Of a stretch of DNA of 64,000 nucleotides, positions 7,366 to 52,055 are shown piece by piece. Under the pieces are notes generated by a model. That model was not told the DNA's origin. It was given only the letters and a program-made list of their open reading frames with translations, and did no database searches. Source of the DNA: Octopus sinensis (taxonomy: Eukaryota); the NCBI RefSeq assembly GCF_006345805.1, contig NC_043015.1:11656001-11720000 (forward strand). Reading direction: 5' to 3'. Position 1 is the first letter of the stretch. Each line of letters opens with the position of its first letter. The position numbers were made by a program, and so were the translations under genes.

Positions 7366-7372
7366 ATTATTA

Positions 7373-7446
<74 letters not shown>
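7366..7446. repeat. (TTA)n tract: tail or target site of the R4/Dong element
   Basis: Directly abuts the 3' UTR of the minus-strand LINE. Confidence 0.9.
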
Positions 7447-7447
<1 letters not shown>

Positions 7448-10400
7448 TATGTTTGACTTTTGCTTTATATTTGTACAAGTTGGCTCCAAGTCTCACCCAG
7501 AGACCTCAAGAGACAACAGGGTTGGAAGTTCATGTTGTTGTTATGCCTAGTGTGCCATATATTTGGGGGGTGGGGATGTTGTACTAATGAATGTCTAAAA
7601 AAAAATAAAGTTTTTTTTTTTTTTTTTTTTTTAAACCGAAAATTATGGTTGTTTTAAACCTTGAGGTTACATAGAGAGTATTTTGCGTAGGATATGAGCA
7701 GTTCCCATGAGCACTATCTTTTGAACTTCTGCCATTTTTGGGTTTCCTGGTATCTGAGTTAGATAGCTATCAGCCCCTTTTGCTATCATTCCCAGGGCAC
7801 CTATGACAACAGGTATTGTTTTAGTCTTCAGCTTCCACATTTTGCTGATTTCTATTTCAAGATCTTTATATTTGCTCAGTTTTTGGTAGGTCCTGACAGA
7901 TACGTTTATATCGATTGGGACAGTCATATCAATGAGGAGGCATGTTCTTTGTTTGAAGTCTTTCAATATGATGTCTGGCCTATTTGCATCTATCTTCCTG
8001 TCAGTTTGAATGGTGAAGTTCCAGAGGAGTGAGATGTGGTCATTTTCAAGCACTGGGGGTGGTTTGTGTTCCCACCAGTTTTTTTCATGGGGCAAATCCA
8101 GGTTTTTACAGATTACCCAGTGAATATATTGTGCAGCTCTATCGTGTCTGTTGAGATACTCTGTAGGCGCTAGAAGACTGCACTTGGAGACCACATGGTC
8201 AATGGTTTCATTTTGTTGCTTGCATACACGACATGTTGGACTGCTTCTGATCTTTAATATGTTGGCCTGGTAGTTTCTTGTTGGTAGGCATTGATCTTGA
8301 GCTGCTATGATAAACCCCTCTGTTTCAGATTTTAAGCCAGAGGCCATTAGCCATTGATGGGTCAGGGCTTTGTCGATATCTGCATTATTCGCTCGCTTTG
8401 GGTATTTGCCATAGAGAGGTTTTTCTTGCCATTTATTATTCAGAATATCTAAGGCCGCAGTTTTGGCACGGGTTTTCATGCGCCTAGCTTTTTCTGTGCT
8501 TGTTTCTCGTATGTCTATCTCTAATTCCGAAATTGGTTGTATTCGGAATTCACTTAGATATTCCTTTGCCTGTTTTGTGACTGAGTATGATGCTTTCTTG
8601 TTTTCATGTTTTGAGACAAGTTTTAACATCCAGTCCTCAGAGTTTTTCAGGTAGGTGTCTAGGCCAATTGTAGCAATCTTCATTGTTATTGCCAGTTGCA
8701 AAAGACCACGGCCTCCCTCTTTTCTTGGCAGATAGAGTCGTTCTGTATCTGCCTTAGGGTGGTGCATTCTATGCATTGTCAACAGTTTCCTTATTTTTCT
8801 GTCGAGCTGACATATTTCAGTAATTGACCAGTTAACAATATTGAAACTGTAAGTCACGACTGGTATAGCTAATGCATTGGTTGCTTCGATCCTGTTTCTT
8901 GCATTCAGCTCTGTCTTGAGTATTGCTCTCACTCTTCGATAGCATTCTCTCCTGATCCTTGCCTTCATCTCTGAATGCCTTATTCCGTTCCCTTCAATTA
9001 CCCCTAGGTACTTGTAGCTCTCCGCTGGGTCTAGTTCTTTTATGACATTCTGTTGGTCAAGGTTAACGTTAGATGTTTCTGTCATTTTTCCTTTGATAAA
9101 GGTAGCCTTTGCACATTTATCGAGGCCGAATTGCATTCTGATGTCGTCACTGAATTGTTTGACTATCGCTAGTAAGCCCTTGAGTTGTTGATCATTTTTT
9201 GCAAAAAGCTTTAAATCATCCATGTAAACGAGATGATTTATATTTTTATCAAACATTTTATACCCGTACTGCGCGTCATTGAGCACTTTGAGAGAGGTAT
9301 TAAGGATAAACAAAAGAGGAGTGGTGACAGTGAGTCACCCTGGAAAATGCCACACGAAATTTTTACATCACCAGCATTTAGGGATTCACTGTCACTGTTC
9401 AGAGTTAGTGTGGTTCTCCATGATCTCATACTTACAGTCAAGAAGTTTCGCAGAGTTGGTGCTATCTTATACATTTCAAGGCATTTCCTAATCCAGCTAT
9501 GTGGTAGGCTATCAAAAGCCTTTTTATAGTCTATCCAGGCTATTGATCAGTTTTTGTGTCGTTTCTGACAATCTTCTAAGATCATCTTATTGATGAGTAG
9601 TTGGTCTTTACAGCCGTAGGATCCACGTTTACATCCTTTCTGTTCATTAGGGAATATGCTGCTGTCTGTTAAAAAACTATAGGTATATTCCGTCAGGACA
9701 GATGTTAGTGTTTTGTACATAGTTGTTAAGCAGGTTATGGGTCTATAGTTTTTTGGTTCATTTGTTTCTTCACTTTTTGGAAGCAGGAATGTTAACCCAT
9801 TAACTAGCCAAGGAGGCATCCTACTAGGGTGTTGCAAAACATCATTGTACAGTTCTGTTAGCAGTTCATGGCTCTCTGGGAAGGCATTCAGCCAGAAGTT
9901 AGGAATTTTATCCTTTCCTTGAGACTTTCATTTGCTTGACCTCCTGAGAGCAGATCTTATATCTTCTACCTTGACACCCTCCCACTTTTGCTCTTCTAAG
10001 GGGTCCAGTTCTGTAGATATTCTGTCAATCCAGGGGGCCTTTTCGTTGTGTGTTTTTTCTTCTGCCCAGATTTTATTCCAAAATCTCTGCACTTCTTCTT
10101 TTGATGGTACAGACCCTGCAGTAAACGCTGTTTTTCCTATCTTCCTGTAAAAATTCTTGGTGTTATTTTTGAACATGTTGTTGTCCTTGAAAAATCTAAC
10201 ACGCTTTTCATACCTCGCTATGCGGGCAGCTTTGGCAGATACCTTTTGTTTGATGGTTTCTATGGTGGCATCAATATCAAGTATAGTTTTCATATTGTAT
10301 TTTTTCAGTAATGTTTGGGTTTTTGTAGGTTTGGTAGTCTTGTGAGCCTTAAGGTTTTTCAAATATTCAATGTCAGATCTAAATACTTTAATTTGTTGTT

Positions 10401-12398
10401 GCAGACGCTCTTGCCAAGAAGGCTTTTTGTGGGACTGTTGCCGTTTTCTAATCTTTACACCACATAGGATCGTTGAAATTTTCGCGGATGCATAGTATAG
10501 GTGGTTGAGGTTTGTGATATCAACATCATTAACTGAAATTATATCCTTAAGTGCAAGCCGGATTTTACCAATTATTTTCATGTTTTGGTTAGAGTTGCGG
10601 ATTTTAGGAAGTGTATCACGCTCATCCATGCTGGTTTCTTTAATTTTCAGCCATTCAATCATGATTTGATTTTTTAGCTCATGTAGTTCTGTTGGGTCAA
10701 TATTTGTGTGACTTTCTTTATCTATTTGATGCTCATCTGTCTTAGTGTTTATGATTGGTTCAGGGCGTATTTCACTTTGCCTATCACTTATACTAACTCT
10801 TTCAATCCTCTCTTCGTTTTTATCCGCCCTGGGCTGGTCTATAATCATTTCCTCTGTATTATCTTCTCTAGCTGCAGCTTCGTTCATTTTATCCGATATT
10901 GCTTGTCTAACCTGATCAATCTCTACTTCAGTCAGTAATTTCTTTTTTATAATGTTTCTTCTAACATTGGCAAGCTTGTTACTGTCTATGTAGGGTCTTA
11001 CTTCAGGGTGTTTCTGTCTCCAGTTTAAGTATGCTTGTACAGTGCTAGACTTATCTGTGGGGAAATATATGGCATGGTAGAAGGCCTCAAGAACTTCTTT
11101 ATTATCTTCCCTAGACCATTTTTCCTTCTTTTCTTTTGATTATTGGTGATGAGCATGGATGGCCATCTGTTGGAATATTCCGGTTGTGGGGTTCGTCCAG
11201 CTCCTGTGTGTTGGGAAGATTTGATCCAGTAACTGATTTTTCAATCAGGATTTGGTTCAATTTTCGGGTACGTGGTCTTTTGTAATCCGCGCAATGACCA
11301 ATGCGGTTTATTGTTTGATTTGTTGACCTTGAAGCATGACGAGCATCCATTCTTATATTAGGAGATGGATCTGTCAGTTTAGGGTTCACTACATGTAAGC
11401 ATTGCTCATAGCGCCGCTTCTTAAGACTAGCAGATCTATATTCGTCTGTATTTTTTTTGTTGATAGTTTTATCTCCGGACATTTTTTTTTTTTCCTCCTT
11501 TCCTCCTCTTCCTTTCTTCAAGGCTTACTGTGTCTGTATTAGTTCGAAATAATGAGAATAAAATACGGAGAAGGAAACGAAAAGAAAGGGAAAAAGACGG
11601 GATCTGTCAGTTATTATTGTTATTACTATCATCTTCACCACCATCACCATCATCAGCAACATCACCATCACCATCATCATCTTCAATGTGTAGCCACAGC
11701 CACCATCAACACTCCATTGTGTTGGAGAATGGGTGGTTAAAGAATTCATGTTCTTTGGGTCTATAAATAGCTACGGTAGATGGTGGAGACAAAGGACGTT
11801 AATGGTCAGTAAAAGGTCAAACCTGTTTACGTTTATTTATTTATTTATTTTTTCCTTTCTCTTTTCTTCTTCACCACATGCATATGTATATGTATATATA
11901 TGTATATTCACTCACACATATTATCTGATGTTTTCGTCGAAGATTTTTTTTTTCTTTTTTTTAAATAACTTTCTGAGTTCAATGTTATGTATATATTTTT
12001 AAATTTCTGAATTCAGTTGTATGTATATAGTTGTAGGTGCTTAATTCCATAACTTTTTATCGTGCATTTAATTGTGTTGTTACAATAAAAGGTAATTTAA
12101 AAGGCAATTTTACACATTCTTATAGTCATGAGAGACGACTAAATGTAAATGTTCACACAGAATTGGAGATATGTATGTTTCTAATTTTTCTTGTTAGGTG
12201 TACGTTTGTATGAGCTGTAGATATGTAAGTTTTCTTTTTTTACTTATTTTGAGGGTAATTCAAATTACTTACAGAAAACAGTAGATCTTCCAGTTTTCTA
12301 CAGTTGACCTGCTGGGTTCGCTGTTGCCAGTTCAGAGCATCGTAAAAATACGTCCATCCTCTGTCACGTCCAGCCGCCTTCTGTCACGTCCAGCCGCC
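7447..12398 (-). mobile_element. Near full-length R4/Dong-clade non-LTR retrotransposon (RT + CCHC + restriction-like endonuclease)
   Basis: Single-ORF architecture with (TAA)n at both ends (7366-7446, 12399-12439). The 5' limit is inferred from the flanking tract. Confidence 0.88.
7667..11521 (-). pseudogene. R4/Dong ORF broken by a few frameshifts: Myb-like N-terminus, reverse transcriptase, zinc knuckle, PD-(D/E)xK endonuclease
   Basis: ORF pieces 11111-11521, 9928-10887, 9547-9837, 9238-9474 and 7667-9313. Motifs: WSREDNKEVLEAFY, NYRPITCL, EQKGC, GIFQGDSLSPLLF, VYMDDLK, YKYLG, CRVC..ETIDHVVSKC, RHD, RPDII..IDMTVP..KLSKY. Confidence 0.93.
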
Positions 12399-17325: not shown

Positions 17326-18098
17326 AGGTCCCGTTCTTTATTCAGAAGCAATCAGTAAATAATGCTTACAAATCCATGATTTACAGCTTCATGGGAAGTA
17401 GACTTTCATTGTATAAAATATACAATCCTTACTATTCCGTCTTTACAATGAAGTAAATTTTGTATAAAATATGCAATACTTTCTCCAGAAATTTCCAATT
17501 CATTATTTATTAAGGCTATTGACTTTATGAATACCTCTGAAGGGCATTTTATTAATTGGTTTTAAATCATCAGATTACTTACATGAACGAATACTTTTTA
17601 TGTTGGGAAAATACATTTACTTAAAGGGAATATCATCGCACACTAATAATTTCCTACTTCACAAAAACTACATATGTCAAAGTATCAGAAATCCAACGAA
17701 GTACAGGACGAGATTGCGATTTGATAGAAGCCGTACGTTAAAAAGACATATATTTGTGCAAATATACATATGTTAGCAAAAGCGGAAAGAATTCTGCATT
17801 ATTTTCCTTTTAGCAGCGCTTCAAAAGTTTACACTCACACAGAGACATTACATATATATACATATTTGTAACATTCATACAAAAACACACACACACACAC
17901 ATTGAAGCATATGTCCTCGAACAGATATAATTTTTCTATACATCACATAAAACATTCCAATGGCTTTGAGTTAAGATTTCGAAACTAAAGACATTAGGAT
18001 GACTCACATTCCGACAGATTGATCGAATTACACAAAATATTGCTGTTGCGTAATAAAACCGATGATTTATATAATGTTCATAGTGTACCATCCCAGAA

Positions 18099-18676
18099 GG
18101 CGGCGAGCTGGCAGAAACGTTTGCACGCTGGGCGAAATGCTTCGCAGAATTTCGCATGCCGCTACGTTGTGGGTTCAAATTCCGCCGGGGTCGACTTCGC
18201 CTTTCATCCTTTCGGGGTCGATTGAATAAGTACCAGTTATGCACTGGTTCGATATAATCGACTTAATCCGTTTGTCTGTCCTTGTTTGTCCCTTCTGTGT
18301 TGAGCCCCTTGTGGGTATTAAAGAAATAGATATTTCGTCTGCTGCTACGATCTGAGTTCAAATTCCGCTGAGGTCGACTTTGCCTTTCATCTGTTCGGGG
18401 TTGATTAAATAAATACCAGTTATGCACTGAGGTCGCTGCAATCGACTTAATCCGCTTGTCTGTACTTGTTTGTCCTCTCGGTTTCTAGCTCTTTGTGGGT
18501 AGTTAAGAAATAGGTATTTCGTCTGCCGCTACGTTCTGAGTTCAAATTCCGCCGAGGTCAACTTCGCCCTTCATCCTTTCGGGGTCGATAAATTAAGTAC
18601 CAGTTACGCACAGGAGTCGATGTAATCGACTTAATCCCTTTGTTTGGCCCCTTGTGGGCGACAAAGAAATAAGAAG
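18099..18676 (+). mobile_element. SINE family B: tRNA-like head plus three tandem 184-bp body units
   Basis: Head GGCGGCGAGCTGGCAGAAACG; the unit restarts (TATTTCGTCTG) at 18331 and 18515. Confidence 0.9.
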
Positions 18677-26157: not shown

Positions 26158-26838
26158 AATACACACATATACACACACATTCACACACATTCATACACAG
26201 ACACGTAACATAGCGTGTATATGTTTACACTGACAGTAGTATTTACATTTCGATTAGCAATTGTATATAATTAAAATACCACTTGATTTTAGTCATATCT
26301 TATTTCTAATTAGACTGACTAGCTCTTGAATATTTATGAAGCAAATTATCAAATATTTCAATATTTGAAGTTATTAAATGGTGGCGTCTCCAGTTCAAGT
26401 CCTATTATCACGGGACTATCTGCGTCTCTGAATATTTTGTGTCAAAACTTTTGATGATGCATCAAGTATGTTGGTATTGTTACACTCAGCGTATAATTAC
26501 ACATATATTAATTACTGAGACATTTAGTATATCCTCATAGATGTCAGTACTACAACGCTTAGTTTATTATAGTATATACAAACATACATAAATACACACA
26601 CACATACATATATATTCTACTCATCGCTTGTCCAATATATAACATCTATATAATCACCGAATTACGATGCAACCTTAAGTTACTACTCAGTCGCAATAAG
26701 CAACCTATCCCTTTTATTTTGTATTTCCCTCTTACGATTCCCTTCGTACATTTCCCTTACCCACCACATCGTCATTTACTTCTTTTCCATACTTCCAGTT
26801 CCTTCCCCATCTCCCCCTAGCTTCTTCTTCAACCTGTA

Positions 26839-27425
26839 CCTATTTCTTTACTACCCACAAGGGGCTAAACACAGAGGAGACAAACAAGGACAGACAAACG
26901 GATCAAGTCGATTACATCGACCCCAGTGCGAAACTGGTACTTAATTTATCGACCCCGAAAGGATGAAAGTCAAAATCGACCTCGACGAAATTTGAACTCA
27001 GAACGTAGCAGCAGACGAAATACCTATTTCTTTATTACCCACAAGGGGCTAAACACAGAGGGGACAAACAAGGACAGACATAGGTATTAAGTCGATTACA
27101 TCGACCCCAGTGCGTAACTGGTACTTAATTTATCGACCCCGAAAGGATGAAAGTCAAAATCGACCTCGACGAAATTTGAACTCAGAACGTAGCAGCAGAC
27201 GAAATACCTATTTCTTTATTACCCACAAGGGGCTAAACACAGAGGGGACAAACAAGGACAGACATAGGTATTAAGTCGATTACATCGACCCCAGTGCGTA
27301 ACTGGTACTTAATTTATCGACCCCGAAAGGATAAAAGGCAAAATCGACCTCGACGAAATTTGAACTCAGAACGTAGCAGCAGACGAAATACCGCATAGCA
27401 TTTCACCCGGCGTGCTAACAATTCT
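26839..27425 (-). mobile_element. SINE family B with three near-identical tandem 184-bp units
   Basis: CCTATTTCTTTA recurs at 26839, 27023 and 27207; partial head at the right end. Confidence 0.9.
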
Positions 27426-31948: not shown

Positions 31949-33688
31949 ATTTGGCTCAAAAGCAAATAGCAAGGCCATGTAGGGGGACATGGAGTTAAGT
32001 ACAGGGTGGTGTTCATGTAAAGAGTTCAGGCCACTTGAGGTCAAGGGAGGCTTTGAACAAAGCGGTCGTCGGCATCTTCACCATCTCGTCTGGCAGCTTG
32101 TTCCACGGATCCGCAACCCGGACGGAGAAAGCTCCTCTCCTTCGATTGAGATGAAATCGTCGCAGGTAGAGCTTTTCGGAATGACCCCGCAGCCGACGCT
32201 CTGGAGCAGGAGTGAAGAACAGCTCTTTCGAGAGGTTACACTTTCCGCTTATGATGTTGTGGGCGAGAATGAGATCACCACGGCGGCGGCGTTTTTCAAG
32301 AGAATAAAGGTCGAGCGTCCTGAGCCTTTCTTCATAGGACAAATTTTTGAGACCATGAACCATGCGGGTAGCCAGCTTCTGGACTCTTTCGAGATGCTGT
32401 ATGTCTTTGAGGAGATAAGGAGAAGAGGCTTGAATCCCGTACTCCAATATGGGTCTCACCAGCGTGACATAGAGTGGTAGGAATATGGCTGCTGTGAGCA
32501 TTCCGAATGACCGTCGAATCAAGAACAGAATTCCGCGTGCTTTGTTGGCAGCACTGGGCCGAAGGCGAAAAGGAGGAATCCACCAAGATACCCAGGTCCT
32601 TTACCTGATCGGTCCTCTCCAGCAGCAGACGACCCGGCTCGAAATCAAGTTGAGTTGCAGGAGGAGAGCCAACAGGCAGATGACAGCACTTTGACACGTT
32701 CAGACACAGGTCCCATTCGTTAGACCACTTTCAAATTTGGTGGAGGCATCGACGAAGATCCTCTATATCACCGCGAGGAGCGACCAGTTCGATATCGTCG
32801 GCAAATAGAAGGGTGTGATGCGTGAGGTCTTCGGGCAAGTCATTTATGAAGACTAAGAACAATAAGGGCCCAAGCACTGAACCTTGAGGCACGCCACTGC
32901 TCGCACTGGAGACGTCGGACCGCGAACCATTAACTTGGACTTGGAAGGAGCGATCTGAGAGGAAGGCACCAACCCATCGTACAATATCCGGATGGAAACT
33001 ATATGCTTGAAGCTTGACAAGTAATAGGCGGTGGTTTACCGAGTCAAAAGCTTTGGCAAAGTCCAATAAAACGATGTCAACAGCATCACTATCATCGAGG
33101 ATGCGCGTCAACAATTCTTCCATTACCAGTAAGTTGGTCAAGCATGATCTCCTCGGCACGAAGCCGTGTTGGGAATCAGAGATAGAGGCTGTGTTTTGGA
33201 GGTGGAGCATCATACTTTTCTTAAGGATGGTTTCGAACATCTTGCTGATTATTGATGTAAGGGAAACCGGTCGGTAGTTAAGCGGGTCTTCGCGGCTCCC
33301 TTTCTTGAAAATTGGGCAGATTATCGCTGTTCTCCAGTCCGCAGGTATAACACCCGTCGCCAATGACATATTGAATAGATGTGTTAAGGGCTCGCAGATG
33401 ACCGGAGTCAACGCTTTGATAACCCGTGGGTGTATGCCATCAGGGCCGTGACCCTTGTTGACATCGAGGCCTTGAATAACACGTTTGACGTCGGTAGTTA
33501 AGCGGGTCTTCGCGGCTCCCTTTCTTGAAAATTGGGCAGATTATCGCTGTTCTTCAGTCCGCAGGTATAACACCCGTCGCCAATGACATATTGAATAGAC
33601 GTGTTAAGGGCTCGCAGATGACCGGAGCCAACGCTTTGATAACCCGTGGGTGTATGCCATCAGGGCCGTGACCCTTGTTGACATCGAG
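31887..33688 (-). mobile_element. 5'-truncated CR1-clade LINE with (AACT)n tail
   Basis: RT motifs NYRPVSLTS, QHGF, DFAKAFDSV, GVPQGSVLGPLLF, LFADD, and the CR1 C-terminus VRPILEY..LERVQ..SYEERLRTLDL..RRRGDLI. Tail (GTTA)n to 31948; TAGGT direct repeat at 31882-31886 and 33689-33693. Confidence 0.93.
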
Positions 33689-44930: not shown

Positions 44931-44984
44931 CGTAAAAGAATATATGTGTGTGTGTATGTATATATATGTGTGTGTGTATGTATA

Positions 44985-45072
<88 letters not shown>

Positions 45073-45223
45073 AATTAAGGACTGAACACGAAAAGTGGAC
45101 AGTCAACATGCTAGATATAGACGTCAAATCGCCATTCACCACAAAAGATTATGTTCTCAGATCAAACTCAACACAAAACCATAGCAATAAACAAGTGAAA
45201 AATATACGAAATAAAATAATTAC

Positions 45224-45288
45224 CCATGTACTAAATTAGTTTCAGCTGTTATTTTCCGCAAGGAAAACTGCAGCCATCATCAGCATGG
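45224..45288 (-). ncRNA. Type I hammerhead ribozyme (array 1, inverted arm)
   Basis: CCATG-CTGATGA-t-GGCTG..TTTTCC ttgc GGAAAA..CAGCT-GAAA-CTA att TAG-TA-CATGG. Confidence 0.85.
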
Positions 45289-45681
45289 TCCGTTATAAAT
45301 GTAATTTGCTGGACTAGATGCAAACACGATACCGAAATATCGCGTGCATGGAGTTCAGCCTATTACACTTTTCGTTTTCAGTCCTTAAGTGGTATATATA
45401 AATATTTTAATCTTCGGATTCTTTTTTAATATGCTAGACCACTGGTCTTAATTGATAAATATCAATTTCTACCCTTAATTAATTTTATATAAATAAATAT
45501 GTTCTCTAACCGATAAATTAACTGCTGCTAATTATTAGCTGCAGTCTAGTTTTCTCGGGTTCCAACGCGCCAAAGTAAAGGCATTTGAAAGATATATTCA
45601 AATGTAATAGGCTGAACTCCATGCACGCGATATTTCGGTATCGTGTTTGCATCTAGTCCAGCAAATTACATTTATAACGGA

Positions 45682-45749
45682 CCATGCTGATGATGGCTGC
45701 AGTTTTCCTTGCGGAAAATAACAGCTGAAACTAATTTAGTAGTACATGG
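45682..45749 (+). ncRNA. Type I hammerhead ribozyme (array 1, copy 1)
   Basis: Same fold, with 3 extra nt in loop III. Confidence 0.82.
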
Positions 45750-46190
45750 GTAATTATTTTATTTCGTATATTTTTCACTTGTTTATTGCTATGGTTTTGT
45801 GTTGAGTTTGATCTGAGAACATAATCTTTTGTGGTGAATGGCGATTTGACGTCTATATCTAGCATGTTGACTGTCCACTTTTCGTGTTCAGTCCTTAATT
45901 GGTATATATAAATATTTTAATCTTCGGATTCTTTTTTAATATGCTAGACCACTGGTCTTAATTGATAAATATCAATTTCTACCCTTAATTAATTTTATAT
46001 AAATAAATATGTTCTCTAACCGATAAATTAACTGCTGCTAATTATTAGCTGCAGTCTAGTTTTCTCGGTTCCAACGCGCCAAAGTAAAGGCATTTGAAAG
46101 ATATATTCAAATGTAATAGGCTGAACTCCATGCACGCGATATTTCGGTATCGTGTTTGCATCTAGTCCAGCAAATTACATTTATAACGGA

Positions 46191-46254
46191 CCATGCTGAT
46201 GATGGCTGCAGTTTTCCTTGCGGAAAATAACAGCTGAAACTAATTAGTACATGA
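46191..46254 (+). ncRNA. Type I hammerhead ribozyme (array 1, copy 2)
   Basis: Same fold; stem III is the perfect palindrome ACTAATTAGT. Confidence 0.82.
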
Positions 46255-46694
46255 GTAATTATTTTATTCGTATATTTTTCACTTGTTTATTGCTATGGTT
46301 TTGTGTTGAGTTTGATCTGAGAACATAATCTTTTGTGGTGAATGGCGATTTGACGTCTATATCTAGCATGTTGACTGTCCACTTTTCGTGTTCAGTCCTT
46401 AATTGGTATATATAAATATTTTAATCTTCGGATTCTTTTTTAATATGCTAGACCACTGGTCTTAATTGATAAATATCAATTTCTACCCTTAATTAATTTT
46501 ATATAAATAAATATGTTCTCTAACCGATAAATTAACTGCTGCTAATTATTAGCTGCAGTCTAGTTTTCTCGGGTTCCAACGCGCCAAAGTAAAGGCATTT
46601 GAAAGATATATTCAAATGTAATAGGCTGAACTCCATGCACGCGATATTTCGGTATCGTGTTTGCATCTAGTCCAGCAAATTACTTTATAACGGA

Positions 46695-46759
46695 CCATGC
46701 TGATGATGGCTGCAGTTTTCCTTGCGGAAAATAACAGCTGAAACTAATTTAGTACATGA
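46695..46759 (+). ncRNA. Type I hammerhead ribozyme (array 1, copy 3)
   Basis: Same fold. Confidence 0.82.
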
Positions 46760-46998
46760 GTAATTATTTTATTTCGTATATTTTTCACTTTTTATTGCTA
46801 TGGTTTTGTGTTGAGTTTGATCTGAGAACATAATCTTTTGTGGTGAATGGCGATTTGACGTCTATATCTAGCATGTTGACTGTCCACTTTTCGTGTTCAG
46901 TCCTTATTGGTATATATAAATATTTTAATCTTCGGATTCTTTTTTAATATGCTAGACCACTGGTCTTAATTGATAAATATCAATTTCTACCCTTAATA

Positions 46999-47042
<44 letters not shown>

Positions 47043-47264
47043 TCAATATAGGGTGCCAAAAAAAAATTTTGTAGAATTTTTTTCCCACCAGCGGCCTAGT
47101 GGGAAAAAATTAAATAGTCATAGACCATTTTTAAGTTCAACATCAACAATCAAGGAACGGCCATAATAGGCCATTCACCCACTAGAAATAACAGCCAAAG
47201 CTTCAACCGCAAATAAAAATCAATTCCGTAAACAGGAGAACATTTAAAAAACATTTACCCTGTA

Positions 47265-47370
47265 ATTTCTTATACGATGCACCGTTTCATCTGCTGTTTA
47301 ATGGTAAACTAACCTGATTAAATTAAATCAGGCCAATCTTCCATAGGCCCTCAGATTCTTCAGTAAGAAT
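47265..47370 (-). ncRNA. Type I hammerhead ribozyme (array 2, minus copy)
   Basis: TTCTTA-CTGAAGA-ATCTG..CAGAT-GAAA-CG gtgcat CG-TA-TAAGAA on the minus strand. Confidence 0.82.
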
Positions 47371-47751
47371 AGCCACAAGTCGGAACAGATATTTTCACGA
47401 GGCATTTCCGACCCTGCCAGGTAATATCTGACCTAAAATTTTCAAATCATCGCACTCGCGCCAAATTTATCGGCGCAAATAATATAAGCCGTCGATTCCA
47501 TTACGGAATTAACCAGAAAATTCATAATTAATCAATATAGGGTGGCAAAAAAAATTTTGTAGAATTTTTTTGCCACCAGCGGCCTAGTGGCAAAAAATTA
47601 AATAGTGTCATAGACCATTTTTAAGTTCAACATCAACAATCAAGGAACGCCATAATAGGCCATTCACCCACTAGAAATAACAGCAAAGAAGCTTCACGCA
47701 ACTAAAAATCAATTCCGTAAACAGGAGAAAATTAAAAAACATTACCCTATA

Positions 47752-47856
47752 ATTTCTTATACGATGCACCGTTTCATCTGCTGTTTAATGGTAAACTAAC
47801 CTGATTAAATTAAATCAGGCCAATCTTCCATAGGCCCTCAGATTCTTCAGTAAGAT
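47752..47856 (-). ncRNA. Type I hammerhead ribozyme (array 2, minus copy)
   Basis: Same fold, 487 bp from the previous copy. Confidence 0.8.
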
Positions 47857-48312
47857 AGCCACAAGTCGGAACAGATATTTTCACGAGGCATTTCCGACCC
47901 TGCCAAGGTAATATCTGACCTAAAATTTTCAAATCATCGCACCGCGCCAAATTTATCGGCAGCAAATAAATATAAGCCGTCGATTCCATTCGGAATTAAC
48001 CAGAAAATTCATAATTAATCAATATAGGGTGGCAAAAAAAATTTTGTAGAATTTTTTTGCCACCCGCGGCCTAGTGGCCAAAAATTAAATAGTCATAGAC
48101 CATTTTTAAGTTCAACATCAACAATCAGGAACGGCCATAATAGGCCATTTACCCACTAGAAATAACAGCCAAAGCTTCAACCAAGCAATAAAAATCAATT
48201 CCGTAAACAGGAGAAAATTTGGCGCGAGTGCGATGATTTGAAAATTTTAGGTCAGATATTACCTTGGCAGGTCGGAAATGCCTCGTGAAAATATCTGTTC
48301 CGACTTGTGGCT

Positions 48313-48418
48313 ATTTCTTACTGAAGAATCTGAGGGCCTATGGAAGATGGCCTGATTTAATTTAATCAGGTTAGTTTACCATTAAACAGCAGATGAAACG
48401 GTGCATCGTATAAGAAAT
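48313..48418 (+). ncRNA. Type I hammerhead ribozyme (array 2)
   Basis: ATTTCTTA-CTGAAGA-ATCTG-(~58 nt)-CAGAT-GAAA-CGGTGCATCG-TA-TAAGAAAT; 8-bp stem I. Confidence 0.85.
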
Positions 48419-48797
48419 TACAGGGTAAATGTTTTTTAAATTTTCTCCTGTTTACGGAATGATTTTTATTTGCGGTTGAGCTTTGGCTGTTATTTCTAGT
48501 GGGTGAATGGCCTATTATGGCCGTTCCTTGATTGTTGATGTTGAACTTAAAAATGGTCTATGACTATTTAATTTTTTGCCACTAGGCCGCTGGTGGCAAA
48601 AATTTCTAAAAATTTTTTTTGGCACCCTATATTGATTAATTATGAATTTTCTGGTAATTCCGTAATGGAATCGACGGCTTATATTTATTTGCTGCCGATA
48701 AATTTGGCGCGATGCGATGATTTGAAAATTTTAGGTCAGATATTACCTTGGCAGGGTCGGAAATGCCTCGTGAAAATATCTGTTCCGACTTGTGGCT

Positions 48798-48904
48798 ATT
48801 TCTTACTGAAGAATCTGAGGGCCTATGGAAGATTGGCCTGATTTAATTTAATCACGTTAGTTTACCATTAAACAGCAGATGAAACGGTGCATCGTATAAG
48901 AAAT
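48798..48904 (+). ncRNA. Type I hammerhead ribozyme (array 2)
   Basis: Same fold. Confidence 0.85.
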
Positions 48905-49289
48905 TACAGGGTAAATGTTTTTTTAAATTTTCTCCTGTTTACGGAATTGATTTTTATTTGCGGTTGAAGCTTTGGCTGTTATTTCTAGTGGGTGAATGGC
49001 CTATTATGGCCGTTCCTTTATTGTTGATGTTGAACTTAAAAATGGTCTATGACTATTTAATTTTTTCCCACTAGGCCGCTGGTGGCAAAAAAATTCTACA
49101 AAATTTTTTTTTTTGCCACCCTATATTGATTAATTATGAATTTTCTGGTTAATTCCGTAATGGAATCGACGGCTTATATTATTTGCTGCCGATAATTTGG
49201 CGCGAGTGCGATGATTTGAAAATTTTAGGTCATATTACCTTGGCAGGGTCGGAAATGCCTCGTGAAAATATCTGTTCCGACTTGTGGCT

Positions 49290-49395
49290 ATTTCTTACTG
49301 AAGAATCTGATGGCCTATGGAGATTGGCCTGATTTAATTTAATCAGGTTAGTTTACCATTAAACAGCAGATGAAACGGTGCATCGTATAAGAAAT
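49290..49395 (+). ncRNA. Type I hammerhead ribozyme (array 2)
   Basis: Same fold. Confidence 0.85.
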
Positions 49396-49780
49396 TACAG
49401 GGTAAATGTTTTTTAAATTTTCTCCTGTTTACGGAATTGATTTTTATTTGCGGTTGAAGCTTTGGCCGTTATTTCTAGTGGGTGAATGGCCTATTATGGC
49501 TGTTCCTTGATTGTTGATGTTGAACTTAAAAATGGTCTATGACTATTTAATTTTTTCCCACTAGGCCGCTGGTGGCAAAAAAATTCTACAAAATTTTTTT
49601 TGGCACCCTATATTGATTAACTATGAATTTTCTGGTTAATTCCGTAATGGAATCGACGGCTTATATTTATTTGCTGCCGATAAATTTGGCGCGAGTGCGA
49701 TGATTTGAAAATTTTAGGTCAGATATTACCTTGGCAGGGTCGGAAATGCCTCGTGAAAATATCTGTTCCGACTTGTGGCT

Positions 49781-49887
49781 ATTTCTTACTGAAGAATCTG
49801 AGGGCCTATGGAAGATTGGCCTGATTTAATTTAATCAGGTTAGTTTACCATTAAACAGAAGATGAAACGGTGCATCGTATAAGAAAT
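49781..49887 (+). ncRNA. Type I hammerhead ribozyme (array 2)
   Basis: Same fold, with one mismatch in stem II (AAGAT for CAGAT). Confidence 0.8.
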
Positions 49888-50055
49888 TACAGGGTAAATG
49901 TTTTTTAAATTTTCTCCTATTTACGGAATTGATTTTTATTTGCGGTTGAAGCTTTGGCTGTTATTTCTAGTGGGTGAATGGCCTATTATGGCCGTTCCTT
50001 GATTGTTGATATATATATATATATATATAATATATATATATATTATATATATATT

Positions 50056-51208
50056 AAAACTTAGATATGTTTCGACCAGAGATTGGTCCAGGCCATGTCT
50101 AACTTAATAGCACCACCTGATAGGATTATTCGAATCCTGTTTAAGTCAAGTTTTGTTCAAGTAGTGAGTTCTTGTTGGGTGAGTTGTATCCAATTATGGG
50201 TGGCTTATCTGGTATTCTTTGAAGGAATCTATCCAGACTCTGTTTAAAGTTGATGGGATCCTTTTCCTCTTTGATCTCCCTCGGGACAATGTTAAATAGG
50301 GCATGGCCTGTTGAGGAAAAGAAATTATGTTGCAGTGTACATGTATGTTGTGATCTTGAATTTGGCAGGGGACGTATAACCCGTGGTCCAAGTCTTCGAT
50401 GATCCTTGAAGCTAATGTTTAGGTCGTTTGGGCAAAGTTGGCGGTATATTTTCCACATCGTACAAATGATGTACCGCTCACGGCGACGTTGGAGGGAGTA
50501 AAGTTTCAAGGCTTTAAGGCGATCCCAATAATCGAGAGCAGCCATGCCTTCAATTTGTTTAGTGAGAGTCCTCTGGGGTGACTCAATTTTGGAGATGTTT
50601 TGTCTTGTGTGAGGAGACCACAGTGGGCAGCAGTATTCAAGGTGTGGCCGTACAAAGGAGGAAAAAAGTGGTATGATGACACCTTGTTCTCTGGACCGGA
50701 AAGTTCTTAAGATCCAGGAACTCATCCTACGAGCTATATCGACCTTCTTGTTGATGTGTGCACTCCAACTGAGATCGTCATCAACAATTACACCCAGGTC
50801 TCTGATATTGTTAGAGGCTGTGAGCGGTTCCCCTGAAGGAAGAGAGTATGGTTGTTTTAGTGAGGAATTTCTTCCAAAATGCATCAGCTCAAATTTTCCC
50901 TCATTCAGTTGCATTTTGTTTCTGTCTGCCCATTGACTCACAGCATATAGAGTTGAGTTCGGTCTGCTTCTTCATTGACGATTTGCTGGAGCTTAGTGTC
51001 ATCAGCGAATATTTTCACTTTGCAGTGATGTACGACACTGGAAAGGTCGTTTACGTAAATTATGAAGAGTAGCGGACCCAAAACAGTTCCCTGGGGAACA
51101 CCGCTGGTGACTTTTGCTGGGTTTGAGTGGACTCCATCAACTACAACATGTTGTGTTCTATTCGCCAGGAAATACTGAATCCAGTGTAGAACTTTTCCAC
51201 GAATTCCA
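50056..51208 (-). mobile_element. 5'-truncated CR1-group LINE (RT C-terminal half + 3' UTR) between TA tracts
   Basis: GVPQGTVLGPLLF, IFADDTKL, RDLGVIVD, VRPHLEYCCPLWSP and LYSLQRRRERY; one frameshift near 50940. Confidence 0.9.
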
Positions 51209-52055
51209 ATATATATATATATATATATGTGTGTGTGTATATATGCATATATATATTTATATATATATACAAACACACACACACGCATACTTACGCATAT
51301 CCGAGTATGGATCTCTTTTCAATCATAGCTGCGTATTTTCACGAAATTGATTAACAATCGTCTTTATAAATTATAAATTGGGCTAAAAGATTCTACAATA
51401 CAGAATGGGTGTGACTGTTGTTAAGACTGTCACACCTCAACCATCTGGCTTCAAGTTCAATTTCAGTACGTTGCGCCACAGTCAATTGTCTCTCACTGGG
51501 CCCCAGGTTGAGCAAGGTTGAAGCAGTAAGTTCATACGGTGAAAGACTACAGAAAGTTGTCAAATTTGTCAACAACCCATAATGAGAATATGCTTTATGA
51601 ATGTTTTAAAGCAGAAAATTTCGCATAGGAACGTTCTGTTTCAAAAACTGTAACTTCCACAACCGGTGTCAAATATAGCAGGAGCAAATCTCTTTGTAAC
51701 AAATAGAATAAGTTCATGTAATGCGTGCATGTCAGTGCGATGCGTTTCTGTCTATGTATGTGTGCGTGCTTGTGGGGATTCGTGTGTGCGGATGAGCACG
51801 AGATTCTATGTTGATGTCTGTGTGAGTATTGTTAACACAGAAACACTATATGTGCCTTAGATTTGTCTTGAACTGATATCTACTGGAAGTGATTTGGTGT
51901 ATTTCCAGTAGTGATGTCAAAACCTTGGCTACTTCATCAAATTGCTAATCTAACATTTTGTTTATATTTGTAAGATCTCAAATCGATTTTTCTTTATCTG
52001 TCGCAAAGTTAAACTTGAATAATCCGAAATACGTCTAGAAACGTGTAGTATATCA

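Follow-up and report, generated by a model that had tools for sequence, protein, structure and literature searches.

Endonuclease-bearing (EN+) Penelope-like elements (PLEs), which include Penelope/Poseidon, Neptune and Naiad, often insert as an inverted 5′-truncated copy joined head to head, with a 30–40 bp tail at one end only and a bias to microsatellites, (TA)n in the case of Naiads (PMC8557442). The head-to-head arrangement is their usual polarity (PMC3846280), and in Schistosoma hammerhead ribozymes are reported as opposite-strand pairs 100–700 bp apart (PMC4209133). With AT-rich DNA as its target, the purified PLE protein of Anolis cuts both strands and extends both of them; its synthesis begins at two internal sites, downstream of the ribozyme cut, and relies mainly on uncleaved RNA (PMC11167929). 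Metazoan retrozymes without long terminal repeats (non-LTR retrozymes) are described as tandem units with a type I hammerhead, which are low in GC, encode no protein and are predicted to form a highly paired circle (Cervera and de la Pena 2020, PMC7229834; Li et al., bioRxiv 10.64898/2026.07.22.740005). PLEs have been proposed to mobilize retrozymes (PMC7229834; bioRxiv 10.64898/2026.07.22.740005), and circular RNA has been proposed as the intermediate (PMC7229834; PMC4209133). An octopus annotation lists recently active Penelope families (PMC13282606). Here we describe two hammerhead-bearing arrays, A and B, in a 64,000 nt stretch of the Octopus sinensis genome (NC_043015.1, 11,656,001–11,720,000), hereafter the window, whose own numbering is used below.

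The feature is real and correctly located. A and B are tandem arrays of 507 nt and 492 nt units, respectively, which are set apart by (TA)n and each of which consists of an inverted left arm and a direct right arm. In both arrays an inverted 5′-truncated copy is joined head to head, and all four outer ends have a microsatellite as target, which are traits of the EN+ PLE signature. As this back-to-back layout is known from Penelope-like retrotransposons, Penelope enzymes suggested themselves as the inserters. We consider it probable that A and B represent two related non-autonomous, protein-free families resembling PLE pseudo-long terminal repeats (pLTRs), each inserted by a PLE reverse transcriptase (RT)-endonuclease acting in trans. 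A Penelope-like origin had been put forward in the first-pass annotation, and it is supported in that the head-to-head inversion, the (TA)n target and the extension at one end make up the published signature of EN+ PLEs. Unit position 1 is the base just after the predicted ribozyme cut in A and B alike, and the locus is composed as follows.

44940–45070, no strand: left target, a compound (TG/TA)n passing into pure (TA)n.
45071–45367, minus strand: inverted arm of array A, 0.59 unit (unit 369–507, then 1–158), with a 'short' outer end.
45224–45288, minus strand: type I hammerhead motif of the A left arm, located by the descriptor, with its core C at 45283 and a predicted cut after 45229.
45366–45367, no strand: A joint, a CA overlap, at which unit 369 is joined to unit 132.
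45366–46996, plus strand: direct arm of array A, 3.22 units, from unit 132 through three turns to 244, with a 'long' outer end.
46997–47037, no strand: (TA)n forming the right flank of A and the left flank of B.
47035–48220, minus strand: inverted arm of array B, 2.43 units, with a 'long' outer end at unit 237 and a 3 nt overlap with (TA)n.
48215–48220, no strand: B joint, a palindromic AAATTT overlap, at which unit 28 is joined to unit 295.
48215–50010, plus strand: direct arm of array B, 3.67 units (unit 295 to 131), with a 'short' outer end and a 2 nt overlap with (TA)n.
50009–50054, no strand: right target, a degenerate (TA)n, beyond which lies the 3′ end of an unrelated long interspersed nuclear element (LINE) fragment.

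The polarity is the same in both arrays: the ribozyme lies on the minus strand in the left arm and on the plus strand in the right arm, so that the joint brings the 5′ ends together and leaves the 3′ ends towards (TA)n. This is as annotated before, with three minus-strand matches in the left arms and seven plus-strand matches in the right arms. The hammerhead cores of the A direct arm are at 45687, 46196 and 46700; those of the B inverted arm, which spans unit 28 through two turns to 237, are at 47850 and 47363, and those of the B direct arm are at 48321, 48806, 49298 and 49789. Opposite-strand cores are 404 nt apart in A and 471 nt apart in B. The short outer end of A overlaps (TA)n by 8 nt at the longest TA run of unit A, while its long end at unit 244 is followed by an imperfect match (12/15) towards ~47009 (unit ~257).

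Both joints are exact overlaps at the places reported previously. An overlap of at least 2 nt is expected with a chance of 0.19 and one of at least 6 nt with a chance of 0.004 (combined, 0.006), and the CA overlap alone is therefore not above chance. Joint partners were not brought together by the predicted circular RNA fold (pair probability 0 for A and ~0.015 for B), and this candidate explanation was rejected. Each joint (45367 and 48218) connects two points that lie roughly half a unit from each other, 237/270 nt in A and 225/267 nt in B, which may reflect chance or the survival of spaced inverted repeats; the offsets of 270 and 267 nt match only in the arbitrary genomic orientation, and little weight was given to them. 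The first 27 nt of the A direct arm (45366–45392), which duplicate the last 27 nt of the A inverted arm, carry two substitutions (45376 and 45389) in an otherwise nearly invariant array (P ~0.001). One of these makes a 5-bp inverted repeat with the joint perfect and changes a CCTTAATT word, and the other creates a short direct repeat.

In the nearest register, the arms would pair in stems of ~0.3 kb (A) and ~1.19 kb (B), separated by spacers of ~235 and ~219 nt. If the locus were transcribed through, double-stranded RNA hairpins of ~0.3 and ~1.2 kb would follow from this geometry, which the first-pass annotation considered potential ADAR or siRNA substrates. The B spacer in this register holds a whole hammerhead (48313–48418), and the A spacer is without one. 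In a read-through hairpin of the plus strand, the hammerhead in the B spacer could cleave the loop.

We searched both strands of the window with our own type I hammerhead descriptor and obtained 11 matches, 10 of which are in the arrays, one at each expected place. The only match elsewhere, at 17450–17573 (minus strand), is weak, with a stem III of 1 bp, and is probably due to chance. The predicted folding energies of three hammerhead copies range from −18.8 to −30.2 kcal/mol, and the three-stem fold is present in the minimum free energy (MFE) structure of only one of them. Stem III is short and near-palindromic, as in the dimer-type motifs reported in PMC4209133. The units have a GC content of 0.34–0.36, the longest open reading frame (ORF) confined to the arrays encodes 89 aa, and none of the nine array ORFs tested (43 ORFs are listed over the region) matched Pfam. 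When folded as circles, the monomers have predicted MFEs of −138 and −135 kcal/mol, with z-scores of −7.4 (A) and −4.4 (B) against 40 shuffles. The arrays thus combine the traits of non-LTR retrozymes, namely tandem units, a hammerhead per unit, low GC, no protein coding and a self-paired circle. Judged from sequence, A and B fit the definition of non-LTR retrozymes given in PMC7229834 and bioRxiv 10.64898/2026.07.22.740005.

A blastn comparison of A with B, and of each unit with the rest of the window, returned nothing. Outside the ribozyme, A and B align above 200 shuffles in all six settings (z 2.7–4.9) at ~50% identity, and they have two near-diagonal exact 10-mers in common (P = 0.003). 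These alignments indicate that A and B are distant, collinear homologs. Exact 23 nt patterns from A and from B had no match in the prokaryotic genome collection. Two other classes of element were considered and rejected: an autonomous PLE, as no ORF combining RT with GIY-YIG was found among the 28 ORFs scanned, and a MITE (a miniature transposable element with inverted repeats), as terminal inverted repeats with matching ends are absent and the ends of each array fall at different unit positions. In both units we noticed by eye a GGTAA just past the cut and AG-ending stretches ~300 nt further on (A 5–315, B 14–330). This could represent a retained intron as in PLEs, which would place all four ends in unspliced sequence.

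All four outer ends adjoin (TA)n, at unit positions A158, A244 (imperfectly to ~257), B237 and B131. They lie 131–257 nt downstream of the ribozyme cut, within an arc of 21.5% of the unit (P = 0.04), and one end of each array is long and the other short, with an offset of 86–99 nt in A and of 106 nt in B. Each end comes no more than ~12 nt after a CCT..ATT word, as listed below.

45073–45080, minus strand: end-adjacent motif CCTTAATT, A unit 149–156.
46991–46998, plus strand: end-adjacent motif CCTTAATT, A unit 239–246, the last base of which differs in the terminal copy.
47045–47052, minus strand: end-adjacent looser motif CCTATATT, B unit 220–227.
49997–50004, plus strand: end-adjacent motif CCTTGATT, B unit 118–125.

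All three CCTTRATT sites of the two units are at ends, as are four of the five looser sites; the fifth is inside the ribozyme. Independently of the motif, the likeness of the end contexts gave P = 0.0006 (0/5000 with an AT-matched null), and 10 further choices of window and ends gave values of 0.0007–0.094, eight of which were below 0.05. The four inner joint points, with a context score of 29 against a null mean of 28, are unlike the outer ends. The long ends are at roughly homologous positions, A257 aligning to B238 or B232. The overlaps of the outer ends with (TA)n (8, 2, 3 and 2 nt) are above chance (P = 0.009); both A ends are at long TA-like tracts of the unit, and the B ends are unremarkable in TA-likeness. 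No common stem-loop like the AC-rich one of the Anolis Poseidon (PAc) was seen at the four ends. Termination at the ribozyme cut sites was also rejected, with no end or joint located at a cut.

The first-pass annotation had called the ends permuted. The four ends do differ and do adjoin (TA)n, but 'permuted' is too strong because they cluster in 21.5% of the unit, beside a common motif, and free permutation is not supported. The 'tail' signature of a PLE with two start sites fits better because the ends cluster, adjoin the common motif and, for the long ones, are approximately homologous. The same annotation held that fixed identical ends would mean a MITE or a satellite; this was mis-set, since PLEs have two preferred ends (PMC11167929).

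The arms run without interruption through 1, 3, 2 and 4 predicted cut sites (A left, A right, B left and B right, respectively), in agreement with the earlier proposal that both (TA)n ends primed on a template longer than one unit. Because the arms cross cuts and no junction is at a cut, a cleaved linear monomer is excluded as the template unless the arrays grew later. The A copies are nearly identical, with 4 substitutions in 1928 nt. The variant at position 5 of A reads G, G, A, A along the implied template, and the adjacent copies R2 and R3 are alike in a variant; in B, variants 170 and 216 occur in all four combinations. Since variants are common to several copies, a single circular monomer is insufficient alone and would need later exchange, template switching or polishing noise. 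Variants at window position 47084 and at 170/189/216 of the B unit sit in two alternative hairpins. At 170/189, one copy has the compensatory pair C170–G189, three have G170–C189 and two are mismatched.

Copying of one arm from the other was considered for B, by cDNA snap-back or from arm to arm. Hand-picked sites agreed in 8 of 10 cases, but an unbiased count in the hairpin register gave 11 matches at 19 shared sites, ranking second of six pairings, and this candidate is not supported. The A left arm is identical to its hairpin partner save for one 3 nt insertion. Editing of the template was rejected, as none of the 27 substitutions relative to the majority units is A>G in the ribozyme sense.

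Compared with the metazoan retrozymes, the units here (~490–507 nt) exceed the 170–400 nt given in PMC7229834 and are inside the range of 51–972 given in bioRxiv 10.64898/2026.07.22.740005. The arrays share with EN+ PLEs the head-to-head inverted 5′-truncated copy, an extension at one end that may correspond to the PLE tail and the microsatellite or (TA)n target, as well as a hammerhead in the repeat and opposite-strand hammerheads a few hundred bp apart (PMC8557442; PMC3846280; PMC4209133). In contrast to EN+ PLEs, there is no RT-endonuclease ORF here, B has multi-unit arms on both sides of the joint, no long palindrome is present at the joint, and the extension is ~90–105 nt instead of 30–40. 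Naiads are described as being without canonical hammerheads (PMC8557442), unlike A and B. The in vitro activity of PAc resembles our reading of the arrays in the priming of both strands at AT-rich DNA, the two internal starts after the cut and the uncleaved template; however, one start of PAc is given as ~85–92 nt after the cut, at an AC-rich stem-loop and without target homology (PMC11167929), whereas the ends here are 131–257 nt after the cut, beside CCT..ATT, with a target overlap of 2–8 nt. Twin priming of L1 is similar in that two cDNAs from two target ends are joined by microhomology (PMC2912911), but A and B have no poly(A) end, no readable target site duplication (TSD) and a multimeric template, and the non-overlap geometry is non-significant. 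Chlamys PLEs such as MRC1 are also non-autonomous pLTR elements with multicopy head-to-tail insertions; they are green algal and target (CA)n and (C)n, and most are described without canonical hammerheads (PMC8557442).

Based on these comparisons, insertion may have proceeded as follows. The enzyme would bind uncleaved RNA longer than one unit, either a multimeric transcript or a circle, and cut both strands within (TA)n. Each DNA 3′ end would then serve as the primer for cDNA, which would begin downstream of the ribozyme at either of two preferred internal sites beside CCT..ATT, possibly aided by a few bases of UA pairing. Two start sites would leave a short end on one arm and a 90–105 nt longer end on the other. 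Copying passed through the ribozyme cut sites for 0.3–1.8 kb, as the sequence of the arms shows. The two cDNA 3′ ends could be joined by 2–6 nt of complementarity to give the head-to-head insertion. Two such events would have taken place in one microsatellite, and the copy numbers may have altered later. A single microsatellite took both insertions (44993–50054), though runs of (TA)10 or more number 26 in the window, and either a hotspot or a coupled event would account for this. More tentatively, and with appreciable doubt, A and B might be animal retrozymes that were inserted as preformed multimers through a dimeric PLE enzyme, whose two RT sites start ~90–105 nt apart at the conserved CCT..ATT and copy circular or multimeric RNA several times round from both ends of the (TA)n break.

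Several alternatives to insertion by a PLE enzyme in trans were weighed. In L1-style twin priming at arbitrary sites, the (TA)n ends would anneal at UA-rich RNA and the two cDNAs would copy adjacent, non-overlapping parts of one multimer or circle. The overlaps above chance at the outer ends and the position of both A ends at long TA-like tracts agree with this, as do the G, G, A, A order of the position-5 variant and the microhomology at all junctions, which is typical of such events (PMC2912911). The direct arms begin within 27 nt (an overlap) and 57 nt (a gap) of the priming point of the inverted arm, which is compatible with twin priming, but this start-point geometry is non-significant (P = 0.12). 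Moreover, the B ends overlap (TA)n by only 2–3 nt, the ends have a non-TA context in common that also stands out from the AT-matched null, and the long ends are roughly homologous in position; we regard this explanation as unlikely. It is distinctly unlikely that ordinary short inverted PLE pLTR insertions grew later into arrays by local DNA amplification through unequal crossover. This is a model proposed for retrozyme arrays in bioRxiv 10.64898/2026.07.22.740005, and both the variant common to R2 and R3 and the four combinations of B170 and B216 are what exchange between copies gives. However, three of the four arms, including the B inverted arm, need more than one unit at the start as well as separate expansion, and the near identity of the A copies implies that little time has passed.

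Repair at the DNA level, in which a fragile (TA)n break is filled from a genomic array or DNA circle and a fold-back or template switch makes the inversion, would account for microhomology at all six junctions. The two substitutions next to the A joint suggest error-prone synthesis there, the A left arm differs from its hairpin partner by the 3 nt insertion only, and fold-back templated insertions are known (PMC11724301; PMC10766183). Nevertheless, such repair leaves unexplained why the same ribozyme polarity arose twice, why the ends are linked to a motif and why two related ribozyme elements were chosen; in addition, in the hairpin register neither B arm is a copy of the other, and no donor is in the window. 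We therefore hold it to be very improbable. Least credence is given to a sequencing or assembly artifact, that is, a fold-back chimera or a mis-join at TA tracts, although such structures are known to trouble assemblies (PMC8557442). The caution about read error in the first-pass annotation was justified: relative to the majority units there are 38 indels, 31 deletions and 7 insertions, of which 28 are beside a like base, and the B left arm is densest in differences (24.5 per kb). Because the indels look like read error, base-level variants need caution. The annotation also cautioned that a fold-back chimera may mimic an inversion. A fold-back predicts a mirrored flank and arms ending at the same unit position, but the flanks have only 27–28 nt matches in common, the ends differ, and the joints are not palindrome centers, given spacers of ~220–235 nt. 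Indels in B are more frequent in the paired arms (29 in 2373 nt versus 2 in 603 nt, P = 0.035), the pattern to be expected from nanopore reading of a genuine inverted duplication (PMC7229812); A is without this enrichment (1 in 600 versus 6 in 1326). If nanopore was the platform, the B indels fit a genuine inverted duplication. A simple fold-back artifact is unlikely.

A number of points weigh against insertion by a PLE enzyme in trans. The basis is two insertions only, in one error-bearing sequence. The ribozymes are called from the descriptor and the folds, as Rfam returned no hammerhead family at the gathering score or at E ≤ 10, nor any other credible family. No ORF with RT plus GIY-YIG, and hence no autonomous PLE, is among the 28 ORFs scanned, and the 64 kb window contains no further copy or donor of either unit. 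The CCT..ATT motif was spotted by eye before testing, on four ends only, and two choices in the end-context test missed the 0.05 level (P = 0.052 and 0.094). The short ends fall at non-homologous positions, A158 aligning to B146–148, ~15 nt off B131. The ends overlap the target in sequence whereas the Anolis enzyme starts without target homology, and the offset between long and short ends is two to three times the canonical PLE tail of 30–40 nt. A TSD is unreadable inside (TA)n, a limit also stated in PMC8557442.

Other repeats are present in the window. A near full-length, broken LINE with RVT_1 and zf-RVT domains at 7667–11524 (minus strand), which we take to resemble the Dong/R4 clade, ends close to (ATT)n at 7366–7446. 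Two RT-bearing LINE fragments (RVT_1), presumably CR1/L2-like, are found at 50055–51318 and 32013–33688 (minus strand). The former adjoins the right (TA)n of B and meets another (AT)n at 51209–51269, and the latter contains a 220 nt tandem duplication at 33270–33688. Tandem arrays of a 184 nt unit resembling a short interspersed nuclear element lie at 18149–18643 (2.7 copies) and 26837–27392 (3.0 copies), with 0% indels in contrast to the indel-rich ribozyme arrays.

The back-to-back architecture itself is textbook for PLEs and is not new. Neither inverted multimeric insertions of retrozymes nor the sites of their ends were found described in titles and the beginnings of abstracts, or by term in the main texts of both animal retrozyme papers, subscription literature and repeat databases being mostly outside the reach of this search. 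The parts and the architecture are of known kinds, and their combination, together with the long offset, is possibly a new detail. Two events in one error-bearing sequence cannot establish a rule. How animal hammerhead repeats spread has yet to be elucidated according to bioRxiv 10.64898/2026.07.22.740005, and local DNA amplification is the alternative to PLE mobilization for the spread of these tandem repeats. A PLE-type footprint left by multimers that encode no protein, in which multi-unit arms flank an inversion on either side, is the kind of evidence that can decide between such mechanisms, and the end motif yields a concrete prediction. If the bolder reading, in which a dimeric PLE enzyme inserts ready-made multimers, were true, PLE priming would have a long-tail variant with a named cis signal, and the retrozyme life cycle, which is unproven, could be tested genome-wide.

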